Positions 5,201-60,451 of a stretch of DNA of 64,000 nt are shown here, piece after piece (position 1 is the first letter of the stretch; the number at the start of each line of letters is the position of its first letter). A model generated the notes under the pieces. That model was not told the DNA's origin. It saw nothing but the letters and a program-made list of their open reading frames with translations, and made no database searches. A program made the position numbers and the translations under genes. The stretch lies in assembly GCA_035221665.1 (NCBI GenBank), contig CM069132.1, forward strand, positions 61,814,001 through 61,878,000. The letters are read 5' to 3'. Source of the DNA: Okamejei kenojei (lineage: Eukaryota).

Positions 5201-5489
5201 CCTGTAGGAGTAAGTTTCTACTTACCTGACGGTCCTTATGAAGGAGCTGGTGGAGAGAGCGCACTGCCCCCCCCCCAGCTTGTCGGTGCTAATGCGCGCG
5301 ACGATATGTCGCGCATGCGTGCTGGCGGGGTCTTCACGAAGTCACTATTGTGACTCCAAAGTAAAATACAACATTTGTGCCATGTTTGATTTCACGATGA
5401 GTACCAAACTTCCATGCAGTCGCTTGGAATGCATATTTTCACCTTTGCTACATCGCACGTTCCCACGCTTATCCAATTTTCACTGCTGC

Positions 5490-5790
5490 TGAAATATTCA
5501 TCGTGTCCTTTGCCACTTCAAGAATTGACTACTCCAATACATTCTTGTTGGTCTTCTCCATGACATATCCATAATTTTAGGCACAACTGAGATTCTATAT
5601 TTTATGTCCTGACACACACCCATCATTCCACTACTCTCTGATTTACATTAGTCTTTTTAAACTTCTCATTCCACGTTCCATTCTCTTCATAGCCTCATCC
5701 CTCTCTATCCCTGAAGATCATTCCTAGACCCATTCAAGATATCTGTGCTCCTCCAAAATTCCTCTTGCAAATTCTCATTTTAATTTAATC
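5490..5790 (+). mobile_element. Old L2-like LINE remnant
   Basis: AGAATTGACTACTCCAATACATTCTTGTTGGTCTT resembles the L2 RT C-terminal 'RLDYSNALLAGL' segment. Confidence 0.45.
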
Positions 5791-8010: not shown

Positions 8011-8339
8011 TGCTGAGTATTTACATTATTTTCTATACTTATCTCCTTGGTTCGCAGCAATTTTGTTTTGATTATCAACAGAATAAATGATTTTTGTTGA
8101 TGACCTTTCAAAAGAAGATCTAATTAATAACCGAGGTCTCTGTTTACTACTCTGTTAACATATCATTGTTTCCTTCCAAGTAGGTTGGTTGGAAAGTGGC
8201 TTTGATGTGGAATGTTGGGAGGAACTGCAGGTGCTGGTTTAATCCGAAGGCAGACACAAAAAGCTAGATTAATTCAATGGGTCAAGCAACATCTCTGGAG
8301 ATAAAGAATAGGTGATGTTTCGGGTCAAGTCATTAAGCT

Positions 8340-24785: not shown

Positions 24786-26272
24786 CAGTGCCCTCCATAA
24801 TGCTTGGGACAAGGACTCATCATTTATTTATTTTCCTCTGTACTCCACAATTTGAGATTTGTAATAGAAAAAATCACATGTGTTAAAGTGCACACTATCA
24901 GATTTGAATTAAGCCTATTTTTATACATTTTGGTTTCACCATATAGAAATTACAGCAGTGTTTATACATAGATCGTCCCCCCCCCCCCCCCCCCCCCCCC
25001 CCACTTCAGGGCACCATAATGTTTGGGACACAGCAATGTCATGTAAATGAAAGTGGTCATGTTTAGTATTTTGTTGCATATTCTTTGCATGCAATGACTG
25101 CTTGAAGTCTATGATTCATGGACTTCACCAGTTGCTGGGTGTCTATAGAGAGAATTCTTCTGTCATCAGCTATGGAGGTCTTCCTTGGCCTGGCAGTCCC
25201 TTTGCGATAAGTAAGCACACCAGTGCTCTCTTTCTTCTTAATGATGTTCCAAACAGTTGATTTTGTTAAGCCGAAGGTTTGTCTGATGTCTCTAACAGTT
25301 TTATTCTTGTTTCTGGAGTATTGTGTACAGTTTCGGTCTCCAAATCTGAGGAAAGACATTCTTGCCATAGAAGGAGTACAGAGAAGATTCACCAGATTGA
25401 TTCCTGGGATGTCAGGACTTTCATATGAAGAAAGACTGGATAGACTCGGCTTGTACTCGCTAGAATTTAGAAGATTGAGGGGAGATCTTATAGAAACTTA
25501 CAAAATTCTTAAGGGATTGGACAGGCTAGATGCAGGAAGATTGTTCCCGATGTTGGGGAAGTCCAGGACACGGGGTCACAGTTTAAGGATAAGGGGGAAA
25601 TCTTTTAGGACCGAGATGAGAAAACCATTTTTTACACAGAGAGTGGTGAATCTCTGGAATTCTCTGCCACAGAAGGTAGTTGAGGCCAGTTCAATGGCTG
25701 TATTTAAGAGGGAGTTAGATGTGGCCCTTGTGGCTAAAGGGATCAGGGGGTATGGAGATAAGGCAGGTAAGGGATACTGAGTTGGATGATCAGCCATGAT
25801 CATATTGAATGGCGGTGCAGGCTCGAAGGGCCGAATGGCCTACTCCTGCACCTATTTTCTATGTTTCTATGTTTCTCAGTCTCATAATGGCTTCTTTGAC
25901 TTTCATTGGCACAACTTTGGTCCTTATGTTGATAAACAACAATAAAAGTTTCCAAAGGTGATGGACAGACTGGATGAGGACTCAGAGCTGAGAGCTGTCT
26001 GCCACCTGCATTAAGGAGGCTGTGCAATTACAAACACCTGTGAAGCCATGTGTCCCAAACATTATGGTTCCCTGAATTGTGGGGACTATATATATACACA
26101 GCTGTAATTTATACATGGTGAAACCAAAATGTATAAAAATGGCCTTTAATAAAATCTGACAATGTGCACTTTAACCACACGTGATTTTTTCTATTACAAA
26201 TTTCAAATTGTGGAGTAGAGAGGCAAATAAATAAATGATGGGTCTTTGTCCCAAACACTATGGAGGGCACTG
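24786..26272 (-). mobile_element. Internally deleted Tc1/mariner transposon, IR/DR type
   Basis: TA TSDs (24784-85, 26273-74); ~250-bp TIRs starting CAGTGCCCTCCATA, with inner direct repeats (~25005-25033, ~26049-26078); transposase HTH 'KSTVWNIIKK..GRPRKT-like' fused to C-terminal 'LVKSMNHRLQAVIA..ATKY'. Confidence 0.92.
25315..25869 (+). mobile_element. Young CR1 LINE 3' end inserted in the Tc1 transposase
   Basis: Open frame LEYCVQF.SP...EGVQRRFTRLIPG...RLRGDLIETYKI...FFTQRVVNLWNSLP; (TTTCTATG)n tail; TGTTTCT duplicated at 25308-25314 and 25870-25876. Confidence 0.92.
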
Positions 26273-27619: not shown

Positions 27620-28790
27620 TTGCAGATGCTGGAATCTGGAAGAAAATACAAACAGCTGGAGAAACTCAGCTGGTCAAGCAGCACATGATGGGCAAAGGGA
27701 TGGTCATTGACATTTCAGTTTGAGATCATGCAACAGGACTGAGAGTGTAAAGGGATGATATCTCTATAAAGGAATGGGGTACTGATTCTGGATGATCAGC
27801 CATGGTCATATTGAATAGCAGTGCTGGCTCGAAGGGCTGAATGGTCTACTACTGCACCTATTTTCTTTTTCTAAGTTTCTAAATATGTGAGAGGGAATGA
27901 GAAAGAGGTCAGCATGTGGCAAGTAGAATCAGGTGGATTTGGGGGTGACAGGCAGATGGAGCTAGGTGGGGAGAGGGAGGGGTTGTAACAGAGGCTTGAG
28001 GTGATAAGTAGATAGAGATAAGGAAAGAAAAATTGAGCAGTGTGATCCAGATGAAGGAAGGGCATAGGAAAGGTAGGTCAAGGGAGAAAAAAAACATGGA
28101 TAGGTCTATGCAGATGGGCAATTGGACATCAGAAAGGTGATAAAATGGAATGTGAGCCTAGATTAACTGGTAGGAGTGAGAGAGCAACACAGGAAGAGTG
28201 GCTTAGCTGAAACTAGAAAAGATAATATTCAAAATATTGGGCAATAAGCTACCTGAGTGGAGGCCAAGGACAGACTGGTCAGTGTGTGAATGGGAATGGG
28301 AGTTTCAGCCTTTCACCACACTAGCCGCTGCATCTAGCATATCATTCTTCACCACTGCATCAGCTCAAATGGAATCCTGCTATCAGAAATATTTTCCTTC
28401 CCCCACCCGCACCCCCCCCCCCCCCACCCCCCCCCCCCCCCCCCCCACACCATTTTATTTCTGATTTCCATAGGACCTATCTCTCCATGAATTTCTGGTT
28501 TGCTCATCCCTCCACAGCTACTACTCCCCATCCTATGGCACTTTCCCTGCAAACATAGGAGATGTGAAACTTGTCATTACACCTCCTCCCTTATCATTAT
28601 CCAGGAACTAAAAAGCCTTTCCTGGTGAGGTGAGAGATTCACGTAATCCCTCCTTCTACCCTGTCTATTACACTTGGTCTTCTCAATGTGGCTTCCTCTA
28701 CATCGGCAAGACTAAGTGGAGACTAAGTGACTATTTTGCAGAGCACCTGTACTCAGTCTGCAACAGATATCCTAAGTTCCAATTTCATGG
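27620..28790. mobile_element. Penelope remnant with inverted segments; CR1 tail inserted at ~27770-27870
   Basis: Minus pLTR/endonuclease end at 27620-28300, followed by plus-strand 'GFLYIGKTKWRLSDYFAEHL' (28630-28815 ORF). Confidence 0.65.
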
Positions 28791-37583: not shown

Positions 37584-38634
37584 CCGAAGATAGACACAAA
37601 AGGCTGGAGTAACTCAGCGGCACAGACAGCATCTCTGGAAATTTTATATATCTATATATATATCGCAGATGTCCATTCTCGATTTTGCAATCACAAATAT
37701 GCGTTCCAATAACCGGGAGTTAAATATTAGATATGACATTTTCAAGATATATTAATGTCCAGAACTAGTTCATATTTTCAGCTTACCAATATAGTGTATA
37801 GGAAAAAAAGCGACAGTAAGTAAAGTTAAGAACCATAGTTATCAATATATTAAATATTTGCAATTAAGGTACATGTTGTACTAAAATCAATGCTAATGCA
37901 ACAGTACCAAATGAATGACGTGTCCTAATATCGTCCTAGACATTTACAATGAATTATACCAAAGTACCTTTGGCGTTTAATCTACCTTCACACTTAATAC
38001 ATGTATACAATGCATAAAATGTTGATTTAATATAGTGCGGGTACCAGTTACATTACATCACAAAAAAACCTATTTTCATTTTTAATGGTAATTCATATAT
38101 ACTTAAATCTATTTATGGGTCTTAACCTAGGGATGATTTTTTAAATTTCCATAATACTTGAATCGTTTTCCTTGAGTTTATTATGAGTGTAGACAGGAAG
38201 ACAGAACTCCACATATATGTATGTAAAACTACCTAAGGAGTTTTAGCTATTAGTTTATAGTTTACAGACAATTGAGACGAGATTCGGTACCTCAAAGCTG
38301 ATAGTTACAACTCTGATAAACCTTCTTTGTCTATCAAAAGTGCACATATTGTACATTTTGGCCCATTGAAGCAAAATAATGCATTAAATATTACCATGTA
38401 CTTTTAATCGCTGGTTGTGATTTTTTAGGTAAGAATAAAGCTTTACAAAAGTCATAGTGAATATAACAATGGCTTAATTGTACTTTATTGTCATGTACAC
38501 CTAAGTGCAGTGAAATGCATTTCCCATTCAATTCAGTGACGATCCTATTATACATTAGGCACAATCATGCTAAGCAAAAGTCTATAAGACAGTAGACCAA
38601 TTAAAACAAATAATTAAGTCTTATTCATTCGCAG

Positions 38635-39045
38635 CTCGAAGCAATGATTCTCCCTGGCCTGGCCACCCAAGAACTCGGTTAAAAGTAGGGAATCCATAAT
38701 ATCAATTTCCAGATGGCAAAACCCAACAGTTCTGTCGAGGAAACCTGTTTTCTGACCCCTGAAGTACAACGACAAAACGAACATGCAAAATTAGTAGCGA
38801 TTATGGTGCGTTTGTCTCTGTTTCCTGGGGTATGGGCGAGGGTGTGGCAGTGGTAATGGTGACGTTTGGGCAGGACAGCAGACGAACAAACCAGGGAGGG
38901 TTGCAATTAGAATAAGGAGCAAAAGCGAAAATATGTCTTAAAGGGGTCCAAACTTTTTTGTTAAATGGGAGTAACATTTTGTAATGGCAGACCGAATTCC
39001 GATTTCGGGAAGATCTGCGCCAGAGAAGAAAAGGCTCGTTAGCTT
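38635..39045 (+). pseudogene. HoxA14: HoxA14 pseudogene: relics of the two homeobox exons
   Basis: Acceptor TTCATTCGCAG at 38634; RTR...P* then QMAKPNSSVEETCFLTPEVQRQNEHAKL (38710-38793) matches the Hox14 pattern Q..ELE..FEENRFLTPEVR.N...KL; donor GTGCGT at 38806; acceptor at 38990, then decayed WFQNQRQKEK-like CGATTTCGG..CGCCAGAGAAGAAAAGGCTC; 6 kb 5' of HoxA13, same strand. Confidence 0.7.
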
Positions 39046-39097
39046 CCAACTAACTGGAACTAATAATGCAGTTATGACTGCAGTTCCAAAACAAAAT

Positions 39098-45042: not shown

Positions 45043-45691
45043 ATGACAGCGTCAGTGATACTTCATCCCCGCTGGATCGACACGGTGATGTTCGTCTACG
45101 ACAATAATTTGGATGAAATTAATAAAAGCATGGATGGATTTTCAGGAGGGAACTTCACAGCAAACCAATGCAGGAATTTGATGGCCCATCCAGCATCCTT
45201 AGCCCCCAGTTCTGCCTACTCGTCGAGTGAACTACCAGCCTCTGGCATTGTTGAACCTGTCAAACAATGTAGTCCTTGTCCAGCTGCTCAAACTTCCTCC
45301 AGTGCTTCTCTTCCTTATGGATACTTTGGGAGCAGTTACTATCCTTGCCGAATGAGCCACCATAGCAGCATTAAGTCCTGTGCGCAGCCCTCCACCTTGT
45401 CTGGCTATCCTGCCGACAAGTATATGGACACGTCCGCCGGCGAAGAATTCACCAACCGAGCTAAGGAGTTTGCTTTCTACCAAGGCTACGCGGGGCCATA
45501 CCAACCAATGCCCAGCTATTTGGATGTACCTGTTGTCCCCACGATCAGCGCCCCGGGAGAACCGAGACACGAAACATTATTACCCATGGACAGCTACCAG
45601 CCCTGGGCAATTACCAACGGGTGGAACGGTCAAGTCTGCTGTTCAAAAGAGCAACCTCAAGCCACCCACCTCTGGAAGTCGAGTCTGCCAG
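45043..45691 (+). CDS. HOXA13: HoxA13 exon 1
   Basis: [21 protein letters not shown]...VKQCSPC...[18 protein letters not shown]...[11 protein letters not shown]...WNGQV...HLWKSSLP; donor G|GTAAAT at 45692. Confidence 0.97.
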
Positions 45692-46091
45692 GTAAATATA
45701 GATAAAACGTAATCTAGTCCCCATAACCGAAACCCGCCCAATGAAGGGGGAAAGCATTCTGTCTGACTTGCAAATGCGTACGGGTAACTGAATGATATAT
45801 ACATTAAACCACAGTTAAGAAATAATATTCCGGATGTGCCCAACATAAATGTGCCTTTCACGTTTTTAATGTACTGCCTAAACATATTTCTTTTTAAAAT
45901 ATCATTCATTCAACTTACTACGCATTAAAATTACATTTGCTGGTATGTCATTTAGTTCAGTAAATAAATTCCAGTAGTTTCTCCACGCACTGATGTTGAA
46001 CTTGACACCAGCGACATTCTCTGTTTTTTTTTCCTGTCGACGGGCGTTAAACTGCAAAGGAGAGTAAAGGTGTGTTTTATTTTCTTTATAG

Positions 46092-46336
46092 ACGTCGTTT
46101 CTCATCCTTCGGATGCGAGCTCTTTTCGGCGTGGAAGAAAGAAAAGGGTGCCTTATACCAAGGTGCAATTAAAAGAACTTGAACGGGAATATGCTACCAA
46201 TAAATTCATCACCAAGGACAAGCGAAGGAGGATATCGGCATCAACAAACCTCTCAGAAAGACAAGTCACTATTTGGTTTCAAAACAGACGAGTCAAAGAA
46301 AAGAAAGTCATCACCAAACTGAAAAGTAACAGCTAG
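46092..46336 (+). CDS. HOXA13: HoxA13 exon 2 (homeodomain); spliced protein 297 aa
   Basis: Acceptor TTTCTTTATAG; [49 protein letters not shown]...[11 protein letters not shown]; phase-1 join is in frame. Confidence 0.97.
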
Positions 46337-47420: not shown

Positions 47421-47920
47421 AGTCTTCATAAACTACAGCGTCGCATATTTTTATGAAGAAACATGAGACCGGCTAAGAACTTCAAAACAAAAAAAAAGTA
47501 TTTTTAAATGGGCTAATTAGATTTCTTCCTGTTGTGTGGCAAGTTATTCAAGATGTGTGAAAACAGAGCTTTCATTCTAAGAAACAACCAAGGAACTTAC
47601 AAAAAAATAAGAAGTGTTAGTAAATATATCCTGCCTTTTTTTCAAGGAAAACATCACCACCCGATAAAGATTCGGGACGTTGATGAAAATATTTTAGGTT
47701 ATATCTAAGCATGTATTAAAATACTGAATGTTTTAGTGTAGTAAACTAAACGCGTTTAAATATTCAGAATAAAAATACATTCTCTGCCATTGCTTGGCTA
47801 TGGTTGCAGAGCGACGGGGGTGAGGGAAGTTTAAACCTTGACCTTGACGAAAACAGATAGTCTTTGACCTTGACGATTAACAGCTCATGAATAGTCATGA
47901 GGTGTATATGTAGAACAAGT

Positions 47921-47936
47921 ACGCCATCTACTGTTA
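47921..47936 (-). promoter_or_regulatory. Candidate CTCF site between HoxA13 and HoxA11
   Basis: Reverse complement ACAGTAGATGGCGT is close to CCASYAGRKGGCRS; a CTCF site in this interval is known in mammals. Confidence 0.55.
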
Positions 47937-49072
47937 CATCTGCGGAGAATCATTCATAAGTGCTTTGAACACACAACCAACCGAACGTGGGTGTTTCAAT
48001 AATGAGCATGTAAAGTTGAACAAGGACTATCAAATATAGGTCAGTAACTGTACCGAGTATTACGTATTGTCGAAATTGTGGAAAGGTTCAGCTAAATTAT
48101 TTTAAATGTTTGAATTTCAATGACTAATCATGAATTGCCCAGCCAAGCTTTAGTAATTTACTAACATCACCAAAGCTTAAATTTATAATCCAAATGTGAA
48201 TATTGGTATATGGCTGCAATTTTGTAAATTAACTTTTAGCTGCATCTAAATTTTAAACTGTGCAACCAATAAAAGAGTAGATAAGTTGATCAAGTAAATT
48301 GTAGCATTCATGAACCGTATAAAAGGCATTTAGTCAACTTTATGTTATCTATGATCAGCCGATCATATGATCATATGATCAGCCGATCTCTTACGTGTTT
48401 GTTATGATGTAACCAGCATTTTACTTTTATCTACAGCTGTATGTAACTGCTCTGGATATAATGGTTATTCACTTATATTCTGTACACTGTATCTGGTCAA
48501 ATATTTGCGAAATTTCGCTTCTAATCTTGCAAAACTAAAGGAATTACCGAGCTGTTCTACACAATATTTGAGTAAGGAATTTTACGCTGCATTTTTAGAA
48601 TTTTATATCATATAGTCTATATACGTTATAAATAGGAAGCACAGGAAATTGTGTGTGGTATTGCATAATTCGTCTTTCGCTGAGGGCTGTGGACGTGTAA
48701 AGCTAAAACTTGATCTGCACTAAAAATATTAATTTCCTCAATTTTTCATTTCAAAATATAGAATTACAGATAAATTCCACAGTCATGCAGAGTACTCTGA
48801 TTTATCTTGGATATTACAGAAAGTGGTCTCTTGAAAGTGGTCTACCTTGAAATTATTATTTGAGAGGTAAGCAAATTTATTGAAGTCTCCGATCTATTTT
48901 GTTGCATATACATCTAAATAATGTTGCACTTCTAAAAGTGAACCTTAAACCATACTTTATTTTTCTAGTGCCTTTTTCCTAATGCACGCGAATCAACAAC
49001 TCGGGGGCTGCTGTTTGCAACATGCAAGCTGATTTGTCAAAATGTCGTGGGATTATAAAATACTACATTCAT

Positions 49073-50136
49073 CACATGACGCAGCGAACCAATCACGGCA
49101 TCCTATTGCAACATTCATCCGTGCGCTGGTTGGGAAATACTCGAGGAGAACCACCCACATTGTCTCTGATCAAGGCTGGTCTAATTATTAGATTCTACTT
49201 TTCTACTGCATCTTGTGTAAAAAAGGCGATTTTTTTTTGTTTACGAGGAAATGAGAACCAAACACTGTGTTATTAGCTAACAGTAATCATTGATGCAGAC
49301 TAAGCAGGTATAACCAACAGTTATCAGTATCTCCAAATAAATAAATTCAGGGCAAATTTTTACTTCGGTTATTATCCGTTTTGCTCCAGTCTTAAGTATC
49401 TCAAATGCAAGAACAATAGTGCGTCTTCAAACAATCAGATTTATCTCGTCAGACTCTCAGATTTGACTCGCCATTTCTTGTTATTTATGGCAAAATATAT
49501 ATTCAAGCAAAATTTACCATACAGTCAACATTAACACCAGCATAACCAAACATAAAACATTGCTACAACATAGAATTGGCGTTCCATAATGTTAATTTAG
49601 CTTCGGCTCTTCCGTTCTTCTGTTGGTGCATATGATTCGCCGTGAACCGTGCATCTTTTGCGTAAATTATCGTAATTTAATGTACTTCTAGTGGATTCAG
49701 CGCAGCCCCGAGCGAATAAAATAATTTATTGGGAAAACGAGAATGCATCCCCCCCCCCCCCCCCCCAAAAAAAAAAAAATTGCCTTAAGGAATAACGCCA
49801 GCAACCTTGGGTTAGTTCTTAGGGATAATTTCGCATGCGTTACTGCAGACTGTCAGTAAAAAAATATTATGATAATTTAATGCACGAAGCTAAACGCCAG
49901 GAATCATGTTTAAAGACATTTATACGCTGTATAATCTACAATTGTAACAGAGCATCTCGTTACACGATTAAATCTATAAGCCATTTCCGAAAACCAAAGC
50001 CGTATTAAGGCAGAGATTTGGATTTAATTTCGCTGAATTCCACTTTTTAGAAGGATTTATCCATTCACATCACAGATTTTGTATGTTCTGCCTGCAGTCG
50101 GCACGCTCATTTGTCTTGGTAAAATTGTTTACTTGA
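49073..50136 (+). pseudogene. Possible relic of HoxA12 (tentative)
   Basis: CACATG+CCAAT promoter-like block; SLIKAG...FYFS resembles Hox12 N-termini; ~850 bp on, RKPKPY*...EF..F I...VKLF at near-homeodomain spacing. Confidence 0.35.
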
Positions 50137-50657
50137 ATTGTTCCTTCTCTTCAATCGAGTGAAGCCGTATTAACAATTCTAAGGGGAAGCAATATGCACT
50201 GCAGGAAGTGGCTACACTTGCATACATTTGTATGAATCCCGCAAAGCCCGTTTTTCTTTGCGCTCACTGTTAAGCATAACTTCCCATCATGAAATTAATG
50301 TGTATACAAAACTATTACTTTTCGCAATAATAGTCCCCAAAATGTACTTTTAATATTTATTGAGAATTACTCCAATCGAATGTGTAATGCCAAATCCATA
50401 CCGAATTCAAACATGAATTCAGAATTAAATGAATTGGATTTTAAATAAATGTACGCTGTACCTAACTTGCTTATGTGGCTCTTTGCAAATCACGCCAAAT
50501 TGACTTCAAAATTGTTGAATTAACTTTAAAAACAATATTAAATACTATTGCGCCACTCCAATTTGAAACTAAATGTATTATTCAAGTGGTCGTTTTATAT
50601 TATAATTGGATCAACGGTACTTCAATGCACATGAGCAAATTGTTCGTTGTTTTAGAA

Positions 50658-52378
50658 TAAATAAAACCAAACTGAAATGCTGAAATCACGTTGAATGTCA
50701 ACAGCAGGGCACGCCTGCGACTGCCTAGGTTAGGGATTTATAATGGACTATTCATAAGTACAAAGATAACATATATTTGGTTTGACATTACTGACATTAT
50801 AGATCGTAATATGGAACTATTTGTAAATAATATGTAATGGCATTCCAATGCTAAATCAGCTACGTAACTAATGTTTGGTGCAAACAACGAAACATCTTCA
50901 TAAAACAGAACATTATATCACATACAAACCTAGACATTTGAGTTTGCGGTTTATGAGGTACCGCAGCATAATAGTTGAAAACAATGACTCTCTGCTTTGT
51001 AATAGATACATATCAACAAGTAGACAAACATTTTATAGATTAACATAAAATATTTGTTTATTCATATGCACCCACAAAGTTGCGGCATTTGAATTAATAA
51101 CGGTTACATTATTATTTTTGGCAAATAAGGTCAAAGGGAATTTCGTGTGTAGAATGTGTTCGTTCTTGTACGACCAACTGGTGCAATTTTTTACAATTTC
51201 CAAATAACATTTGGAACGATTAAGATTACATGCGTCTTATATATTATGAGGTATTCAGAAGGAATATATTGTATATATTATATAATATTCATATACAAAA
51301 TATAATTTTACTTCATGTTCATATTTCACTTCACTAACATAGTGTCCGATATTAAATTAAAACAAAGTATACATATAAACGGAAGATAGACACAAAATGC
51401 TGGAGTAACTCAGCGGGACAGGCAGCGTCTCTGGAGAGAAGGAACGGGTGACGTTTCGGGTCGAGACCCTTCTTCAATTATATCAGTGTAATCGCATTAA
51501 CAATATAAATTTTCACAGCCACAATGTTTAAAGTGTATTTTATATTCTAATTTTGAATTTCTTTGAAATTAAACCTAACTATTCAATGTACGAGATTTTC
51601 TTTGCTGAACAATAATGGTTAGTTTCAATTACAATATTGTTAATTCCAACGCCAAATGCATGCCCTGAATAATCTGGATGATACCTAAGGAAACATAATT
51701 TATTAAAATATACGTGCACAGTGTTTCTGGAAGTAAATCTAATTTCCAGTAAAGATTACGAAATATTGGATGTTTTTACATTATACATTTTTATATATCG
51801 TCTTGCAAATCAGTTGTCTAGTAGGGTAGTGGTGTTCTTTGATGTTTTACAAAATATAATAGATAGCAATGCTCCTCCTAGTATTCAACTTGGAAGCTTA
51901 GTCTACATATTTATTGTTGTGAAGTGTTATGTTGTTGAAACCCAATTCGGAATGTGGAAAAGCTTCATTCGTTGTTTTAAAATAGTTCATGAATTAGCAA
52001 GGAAATGTTCACTTCCCTTATCCAAATGGGATAGATAGCTGGGTGTAAACAGATCAAATAAAAGTTCCAATGGTCGCTGAGTTCACAGCTCTGTGAGCAA
52101 GTGTTCTTCAAAAAACTGAAATAGCATATAGTGCCCATTATGCTTCAAACATTTATTACGTTCTGCAATTGGGGGTAGAAAATAATATGCATTCAGAACT
52201 ACAATCATTCAAATTAATTTACACAACTAATCAACAAAGCAATGAATGCAGTTGAAATTCGTTAATTTTAGCTTTCATGATATAACATTGCTGACTCCAT
52301 CCTTCACGCACGCAGTCGCGGGCCTGCCCTGATGTTGACACTTCACGTATTTTCAGCATTTCACTTTGATTTTATTTA
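50658..52378. repeat. Pair of ~67-bp diverged inverted repeats (50658-50724 and 52312-52378)
   Basis: TAAATAAAACCAAACTGAAATGCTGAAA...TGTCAACAGCAGGGCACGCCTGCGACTGC vs reverse complement TAAATAAAATCAAAGTGAAATGCTGAAA...TGTCAACATCAGGGCAGGCCCGCGACTGC. Confidence 0.85.
51382..51476 (-). mobile_element. Young solo pLTR-type repeat with hammerhead core, inside the HoxA cluster
   Basis: Reverse complement TGAAGAAGGGTCTCGACCCGAAACGTCACCCG..., CpGs intact. Confidence 0.85.
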
Positions 52379-58456: not shown

Positions 58457-59066
58457 ATGATGGATTTTGATGAGCGGGTTTCTTGTGGCTCTAATCTTTA
58501 TTTGCCTAGCTGTACCTATTATGTCTCCGGTCCGGATTTCTCCAGCCTGCCTTCATTTTTACCCCAAACACCGGCTACTCGTCCCATGACATATTCTTAC
58601 TCGTCTAATATCCCCCAGGTTCAACCTGTGCGAGAAGTTACCTTCAGAGACTATGCCATCGATCCTTCCAATAAGTGGCATCACAGAAGCAATCTCCCCC
58701 ACTGTTATTCCGCAGAGGAGCTGATGCACAGAGAATGCCTGCCTGCCAGCACCATGGGCGAGATGTTAATGAAAAATAGCGCCAGCGTTTACCACCCCAG
58801 TTCCAACGCGACTTCCAGCTTCTACAACCCGGTGGGTAGGAACGGTGTCCTGCCGCAAGGATTTGATCAGTTCTTCGAGACTGCCTACGGTTCTAATGAG
58901 AATCAGCAGTCGGAGTATTGCGGGGAGAAGAGCCCAGGTAAAGTGCCGTCTGCGGCAACTTCAAGTTCGGAGACTTCCAGGGTGTCGGTGGAGAAGGAGA
59001 CGAGTCCCGGGAGCAGCAGCCCGGAATCTTCTTCCGGCAACAATGAGGAAAAAAGCAGCAACTCTA
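58457..59066 (+). CDS. HOXA11: HoxA11 exon 1
   Basis: [39 protein letters not shown]...[11 protein letters not shown]...[19 protein letters not shown]; donor A|GTAGGT at 59067. Confidence 0.97.
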
Positions 59067-60218
59067 GTAGGTAGAATCAGTGCCTACTTATGAAGGAAAG
59101 TTTTGCGATCTCGCGCGCTGCTGTTAAAAATTTTATGTGCTGTTTTATAAGCATATAAGGGGGTTTATGGATGGCCTGTAGATTTCCCAACAAAACTTTT
59201 TTTTTAAATAAATGACAGGATCACGTGTTCCGCTCTGAAATTGGCCGTGAAATAACACCGGCCAATCCCTGCATTAAAATAGCTCATCTAGCACCTCTAA
59301 ATGTGAAATTTGGATTAAAAATATGGTCATTTAAATTATTAGGTGTGCATTCATAAAAACATAGCAATTTGGCCGTTGTGATCTACGCGTGTATGAATAC
59401 AGCACACGAATTCTATAAAACACGTGTTGACACAAAAACTCTATTTATAGGTTGTATTCAGTTCCATAAGTAACCGCTTTAAAACATAACAGGGTAAAAT
59501 GACATTTTTAACAGCAACATAAATAGTACAGTACCTTTAGCACAGAGGTTTCTATCATAAAAACTTATTTCAGATTGAGTGACCATATTTTATTTAATAA
59601 TCACATTTTATAGCTGGACGAGCGATAAGCACAGCTTTAACAGTAGTACTTCTGGAGCATGCCTATGTCGACTTTTACAAAACGGAATATCTACACAACA
59701 AGACCCCCTCCCTTAAGAAAACCAATTCATGTTCCCAGCACCTTTATAATGACAGGGCGATTGTGTCATGCTTCAAATCCTTTTAGATTTAACACTCTAA
59801 ATTAAATAAAACGTCGTGCTCTTCGCTTATTTTCTGTCTTTAATGCTCTTATACTCGGGCGTTTCATCTGTAAAAATCATTTAGCTTCCCAATGTGGGTA
59901 GTTCCTGGGTATGGAAATTTTTGTAATTTCAAGTACTCTTTGGAAGGGGAGTATCACAGCTTTAACTTAAGAAGTTCCACAACCATTATGGTAACCGAGG
60001 CAGCCATCTTATGTTTCAAGACCCATTCAACATGTTAAAATGCGCTTTAAAGCTTAGCGAAGTCTTCTGTATATCGTCATTGGTGGTAGATATTGCTGTG
60101 TAAAATGTATGAATTATGTCGAGGTGCTCCGAATTACAGCAAAGTATATGTTGCTCCTTAGAAAAACATTGGATATTCTTACTTATCAATGTTTTAACGT
60201 ACTGTTTACCTGTTACAG

Positions 60219-60451
60219 GTGGCCAGCGTACACGTAAAAAAAGATGCCCCTATACCAAGTACCAGATCAGGGAGCTGGAGAGAGAATTTTTTTTCAGTGT
60301 CTACATCAACAAGGAGAAGCGCCTGCAACTTTCCCGCATGCTCAATTTAACCGACCGGCAAGTTAAAATTTGGTTTCAGAACAGGAGGATGAAGGAAAAG
60401 AAGTTAAACAGGGACCGCCTTCAATATTACACTACGAATCCATTGCTCTGA
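60219..60451 (+). CDS. HOXA11: HoxA11 exon 2 (homeodomain); spliced protein 280 aa from the first ATG
   Basis: Acceptor CCTGTTACAG; [62 protein letters not shown]...YYTTNPLL. Confidence 0.97.

Follow-up and report, generated by a model that had tools for sequence, protein, structure and literature searches.

We identified a stretch of about 270 nucleotides between HoxA13 and HoxA11 of the skate Okamejei kenojei (49292-49560, plus strand; hereafter the core) that likely derives by decay from the 3' half of HoxA12 exon 1 and no longer codes for protein. Positions refer to the window, the 64,000-nucleotide stretch of contig CM069132.1 that was analyzed, unless another locus is named. The core matches nucleotides ~340-580 of exon 1 of the skate's own HoxD12 and ends where that exon ends; its reading frame is disabled by stops and frameshifts in the aligned stretch, and the GT donor is absent. 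We class it as a probable partial remnant and, on balance, favor its identification as a non-coding remnant of HoxA12, the homeobox of which was deleted or is unrecognizable. To our knowledge, the A12 position is empty for every jawed vertebrate in textbook Hox tables.

A homeodomain search of the skate's own genome placed the A cluster in the window, the D cluster (D13, D12, and D11) on contig C7, and the B cluster on contig C31, with no fourth Hox cluster among its 27 homeobox matches. Open reading frames and splice sites delimit the two exons of HoxA13 (45043-46336, plus strand; ATG at 45043, stop at 46336) and HoxA11 (58457-60451, plus strand; ATG at 58457). Queries and controls were drawn from 70 kb of HoxD, 140 kb of HoxB, and an additional 60 kb of HoxA from the same genome, in which D12 exon 1 shows 90-94% identity to shark D12 proteins. 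Elsewhere in the window, upstream of the HoxA cluster, lies a repeat-like open frame of 189 codons (25211-25777), which we take to resemble the end of a LINE. The A13-A11 interval contains no Rfam family and, at about 51390-51480, a repeat-like stretch that is presumably SINE-like.

The Hox12 slot is bracketed by paralogous sequences. The upstream bracket is a conserved non-coding element (47831-47952, plus strand; with a doubled TGACCTTGAC) that is paralogous to an element between HoxD13 and HoxD12 (80 of 121 positions identical) and follows Hox13 in clusters A, D, and partly B, its counterparts lying at about 5431-5554 of the HoxD locus L030 and about 8312-8335 of the HoxB locus L033. The element possibly corresponds to a known regulatory region between D13 and D12, and it carries, also in HoxB, what we assume to be a CTCF-like motif. 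The downstream bracket is the HoxA11 promoter region, which matches the HoxD11 promoter. When the A and D intervals were compared piecewise, 5 of 120 pieces gave at least 17 bits on the plus strand and none of 120 on the minus strand; these 5 fall at three collinear sites, namely the shared element, D12 exon 1, and the Hox11 promoter. The core thereby occupies the paralogous slot expected of a HoxA12 pseudogene, with paralogous neighbors on either side, and has the orientation of the cluster's genes. A further D12 piece, ending at 27814, seemed to match 48940-49139, a similarity that dissolved on inspection. No B12 counterpart was detected, as 25 pieces of 47600-51400 compared with the B13-B10 gap retrieved the shared element only. 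Within that same gap, homeobox queries from D13 (22.1 bits), D10 (20.0 bits), and A10 (15.8 bits) coincide on the minus strand at about 1050-1230 of locus L039, adjoining a CT-rich run; these matches probably reflect purine-rich low complexity or, less probably, an inverted B11/B12 remnant.

The similarity of the core to HoxD12 was measured in several ways. Using HOXD70 scoring and the whole D12 exon 1 against the 12-kb interval, the best match was 49292-49543, with a score of 1719 compared to a mean of 1442 and a maximum of 1802 in 40 shuffles. A custom pair-HMM, which models neutral decay, indels, and local base composition, placed its best match to D12 DNA inside the candidate region in all 6 parameter settings. 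With fixed settings over that region, D12 reached 14.7 bits (equaled in 1 of 40 shuffles) versus 5.6-7.8 bits for 10 other posterior Hox genes. The whole exon 1, a unit fixed beforehand, scored 18.0 bits, and its last 250 nucleotides, a segment picked after the HOXD70 alignment had been seen, scored 21.2 bits with an end at 49559. For this segment, the core was the top match in 264 kb of HoxA, HoxB, and HoxD DNA on both strands (next best, 16.0 bits), and reciprocally the query 49290-49560 found D12 exon 1 as its best match (22.3 bits vs 15.7 bits for the next). A genome-wide DNA search, which skips common words, indicated that the core is single-copy. As a positive control, the same pair-HMM recovered two Hox14 fossils by means of the D14 homeobox exons at 16.6-19.8 bits: the HoxA14 pseudogene in the window (about 38600-39055, with matches ending at 38775 and 39055) and a likely HoxB14 pseudogene remnant 2.7 kb upstream of HoxB13 (about 2050-2295 of L033, on contig C31 of this genome, G000).

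The strongest competitor of the remnant interpretation is chance: the core would be ordinary intergenic or lncRNA DNA, its 21-bit match would arise from a few short AT-rich blocks, and a nearby E-box/CCAAT pair would be a working element unrelated to Hox12. We consider this possible, though rather unlikely. Shuffled sequences reached the observed scores in 1 of 450 cases for the whole exon and in none of 1200 (di-, tri-, and tetranucleotide shuffles) for the 3' half, and D12 was the only one of 11 queries to stand out, doing so in the expected slot and orientation, all of which speaks against chance. In its favor, nhmmer gave no match of the core to D12, and the best that blastn offered was a 21-nt block with an E value of 1.2, weaker than a chance match in HoxD at 0.06. 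The similarity to paralogue group 12 thus exceeds both chance and other groups with the custom pair-HMM on DNA only, and is missed by nhmmer, blastn, and protein profiles. A control with 33 Hox segments against 248 kb on both strands produced four other matches of at least 21.2 bits; three are attributed to the genuine B9 homeobox, whose edge was left unmasked; the remaining one, an unrelated match of 22.1 bits beside low-complexity DNA, also favors chance, as does a non-collinear D12 piece of 16.7 bits at 48795. With the longer query 49000-50250, D12 scored 13.3 bits, less than a number of other places did (up to 19.0 bits). Much of the score is carried by one 30-nt block, the shuffling of which lowered it from 21 to 12 bits, or from 24 to 16 bits when alleles from relatives were included.

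Protein-level searches did not detect the core, another point on the side of chance. A comparison with HoxC12 and HoxD12 proteins had been proposed along with the original prediction of a HoxA12 fossil at this site; a profile of 21 C12 and D12 proteins (alignment A2), run as a frameshift-tolerant DNA model, found the candidate in none of 6 settings, its best matches being elsewhere and at the level of shuffles. None of nine lineage-specific protein models, built on the last 83 residues, exceeded its shuffles at the core, and no chondrichthyan C12 protein was present among the 120 matches listed in either protein search. The protein-only score of the core was 8.4, compared with 21.3 for DNA. 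At equal DNA score, protein-only values of 10 or less were seen in 0 of 56 decayed real paralogues and 12 of 102 simulated Hox12 ohnologues, and in 2 of 15 direct D12 copies (median 13.6) and 8 of 19 chance matches. Identity was also flat over the three codon positions (44/74, 41/73, and 44/73). The low protein-only score and the flat profile both resemble chance matches.

The same two properties bear on another explanation, according to which the core is a later DNA copy of HoxD12, created by gene conversion between paralogous positions or as a stray duplicated piece, instead of the original HoxA12. The core behaves more like a decayed direct copy in the simulations just described, the flat codon positions fit such an origin, and, in alignment A2, its best block is closer to shark D12 (QSPVTP) than to bony-fish D12 or C12. 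However, the slowly evolving shark D12 may simply be the nearest to the ancestor, nothing would direct a stray copy to the Hox12 slot and to the strand of the genes, and gene conversion from one Hox cluster to another is generally rare. We therefore judge a D12 copy improbable.

Returning to descent from HoxA12, this interpretation has to account for the missing homeobox. In simulations of uniform decay based on six real paralogue pairs, the core was never kept while the homeobox was lost (0 of 360), so a fossil origin requires that the homeobox was deleted or scrambled. A recognizable homeobox remnant, as might be expected of a HoxA12 pseudogene, was not found above shuffle level. The best-conserved parts of Hox12, its start and its homeobox, are the ones that score at chance here, which is the reverse of the A14 and B14 fossils and agrees with a chance origin of the core.

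The original prediction described a possible ghost of HoxA12, with a promoter-like block, a possibly decayed start, and a homeobox-like chain. Its letters and places were accurate (CACATGAC at 49073, CCAATCAC at 49089, SLIKAG at 49163, FYFS at 49193, and RKPKPY* at 49988), and so were the spacings given for the chain, with EF 32 nt past the Tyr codon (33 in D12), FI 21 nt further (18), and VK another 63 nt on (60). The place and strand of the proposed ghost look right, given the D12 exon 1 match between the FYF and KPY anchors; the evidence on which it was based is at the level of chance. The core itself had been missed, and that it falls between anchors picked without knowledge of it is a further argument against chance. 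At most, part of exon 1 is preserved; a whole decayed gene is unsupported.

The promoter-like block (49073-49096, plus strand) combines the E-box CACATGAC with CCAAT, and was predicted to resemble the promoters of A13 and A11. This holds for A13, which has CACGTGGA followed by CCAAT, and fails for A11, which has CACATGAC without CCAAT. The block occurs once in the window with 0.22 expected, and in 20 of 100 shuffles. Three of the five other matches to CACRTGAY-N3-16-CCAAT are the B13, D10, and D9 promoters, which carry a block of the same kind, and comparison with Hox promoters revealed no specific DNA partner past the two motifs. It is possible that the block is a relic of the Hox12 promoter or a reused Hox12 promoter.

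For the proposed start, SLI and FYF (49163-49204, plus strand) are spaced by 13 residues as in Hox12 (SLL and FYF in D12), ranking 4th of 11,911 plus-strand places; alone, the pair is not above chance. Aligned as a unit, the start piece, including the supposed decayed ATG, did not exceed chance either (6 of 100 shuffles reached the best of 28 tests). The same applied to the homeobox-like chain of KPY, EF, FI, and VK, which follows a CAG (49951-50130, plus strand) and remains unproven: K-KPY ties for first place, EF..FI is equaled or beaten at 148 places and VKLF at 65, and the best of 30 tests was reached by 11 of 60 shuffles (46 of 60 in another test). Both pieces were scored against D12 DNA, the 21-protein C12 and D12 profile, or a mixture of the two. 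A second register, obtained by forced alignment with a start near 49022-49045 and a homeobox at 49780-49950, was considered and rejected; since neither register is significant, such chains evidently form easily. The caution that AAGCCGTATTAA recurs at 50162 proved correct; in 5 of 100 shuffles the sequence likewise occurs twice when 1 mismatch is allowed. It forms an exact 12-letter direct repeat (49997-50008 and 50162-50173, 165 nt apart), the second copy of which overlaps a difference common to all four relatives at 50159; the pair is either the product of a small duplication in place or a binding site present twice.

Sequence variation among relatives was assessed by aligning four of their sequencing runs (X6, X11, X16, and X20) over 47600-51200. 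All four carry 7 extra letters at 49421/49424, where the earlier D12 alignment had opened a 7-letter gap (p about 0.02-0.03); this filling of a predicted gap again argues against chance. Among 266 places, the insertion ranks 5th, and its score was matched in 5 of 200 trials with random letters at that site. With the alleles common to the four runs, the score of the core rose from 21.2 to 24.0 bits (+2.8 bits), an increase equaled by 18 of 600 random edit sets, and 129 of 220 aligned columns were identical to D12 exon 1. Taken singly, three of the six allele changes raise the score and three lower it. These values derive from a partial allele set, covering 40 of 201 substitutions and 12 of 41 indels and close relatives only. 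In run X16, 48680-49738 shows 32 differences in 1059 places, compared with 119 in 2487 for the adjacent sequence (p 0.018), which hints at constraint. A short tandem duplication around GATCAGCCGATCATAT was also seen at 48320-48400, where 24 letters at 48350 are absent from X16 and X20.

The site likely lies within a spliced, sense-strand, non-coding RNA. One X6 contig skips 48040-48761 and 48867-48968, both of which are bounded by GT..AG on the plus strand, the second with textbook sites, whereas the DNA runs X16 and X20 read through both introns unspliced. The first piece seen (48010-48039, plus strand) is short and begins just past the conserved element at 47831-47952; its joint has an 8-letter ambiguity and is GT..AG when shifted by 8. 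A middle exon (48762-48866, plus strand; donor GAG/GTAAGC) is followed, directly after the acceptor TTTTTCTAG, by what appears to be a long exon of the same RNA (48969-49738, plus strand), pieced together from the overlapping X6 contigs 48969-49175 and 49146-49738. This third piece contains the promoter-like block. Another X6 contig extends over 49789-51006, and contigs from both X6 and X11 span the candidate. X6 is labeled "RNA? (probably DNA)"; none of the listed runs is recorded as RNA, a blank that carries no evidential weight, and the contigs give neither the start nor the level of the transcript, which at 48010-51006 may be a separate lncRNA or a 3' UTR extension of HoxA13. HOXA11-AS and HOTTIP are long non-coding RNAs of Hox clusters; like them, the X6 contig likely represents a spliced and apparently non-coding transcript of the posterior HoxA cluster, and it differs from them by its GT..AG junctions on the sense strand and its location over the Hox12 slot between A13 and A11. 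That the RNA is instead translated as a small protein, from an 84-codon frame that starts at ATG 49022, contains SLIKAG and FYFS, and lies within the presumed last exon, is very improbable, because indels at 49218-49272 shift this frame in three of the four runs (X6, X11, and X20) and its Hox12 signal is not above chance.

On the interpretation we prefer, HoxA12 would be the A-cluster copy of Hox12 that arose in the vertebrate genome duplications. It would have been killed by deletions (about 170 nt within exon 1, provided that the SLI/FYF anchor is genuine) and by removal or scrambling of its homeobox exon. What was left would then have diverged slowly within a Hox cluster that evolves at a low rate and contains few repeats, as the skate's HoxA14 and HoxB14 fossils have done, and, judging from the contigs of a single run, the site would now be part of a spliced sense-strand non-coding RNA. 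That the core outlasted the homeobox would be easier to understand if this RNA, or the E-box/CCAAT block, is under weak constraint. A more tentative possibility is that the core represents HoxA12's first physical trace and that the defunct gene found a new use: its promoter block would persist, with the 3' half of exon 1, in the spliced RNA, and both would have outlasted the homeobox for that reason.

The closest known parallels are the Hox14 fossils. For the elephant shark, one Hox14 pseudogene each has been reported in cluster A and cluster B (PMC3707753). The HoxA14 and HoxB14 pseudogenes of the skate resemble the core in being decayed Hox ohnologues in their own cluster slot, on the gene strand, with similar scores by the same method, and differ in that they keep homeobox exons, whereas the core is above chance only in the variable 3' half of exon 1. 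HoxA14 is intact in the coelacanth and lungfish, according to a paper that also covers D12 losses (PMC3038165); unlike HoxA14, no intact HoxA12 was found in our searches. The skate's own HoxD12 shares with the core the DNA match to nucleotides ~340-580 of exon 1, the position between Hox13 and Hox11, and paralogous flanking elements. In contrast to HoxD12 and HoxC12, the core has no open frame, splice donor, or detectable homeobox, and it does not match C12 protein models.

Earlier work touches on the region. An account of the skate HoxA cluster notes high non-coding conservation and, in its first half, reports no A12 (PMC2746220), and the skate genome paper holds 0 occurrences of "hox12" or "pseudogene" (PMC10115646). 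The single use of "hoxa12" in PMC8713815 is unrelated. The order of the clusters is given as (A,B),(C,D) in PMC5054437. No paper on a HoxA12 pseudogene was found in the literature searched, which did not include the primary papers on the horn shark, the elephant shark, and shark genomes; their supplements may bear on the question.

A genuine remnant would mean that Hox12 persisted in the A cluster following the genome duplications. Its loss would then be datable, the order of events being readable from shark, ray, and chimaera genomes, and a third copy would become available for reconstruction of the ancestral Hox12. If, in addition, the stretch is a working RNA exon or regulatory element, a lost Hox gene would have been reused within its own cluster.
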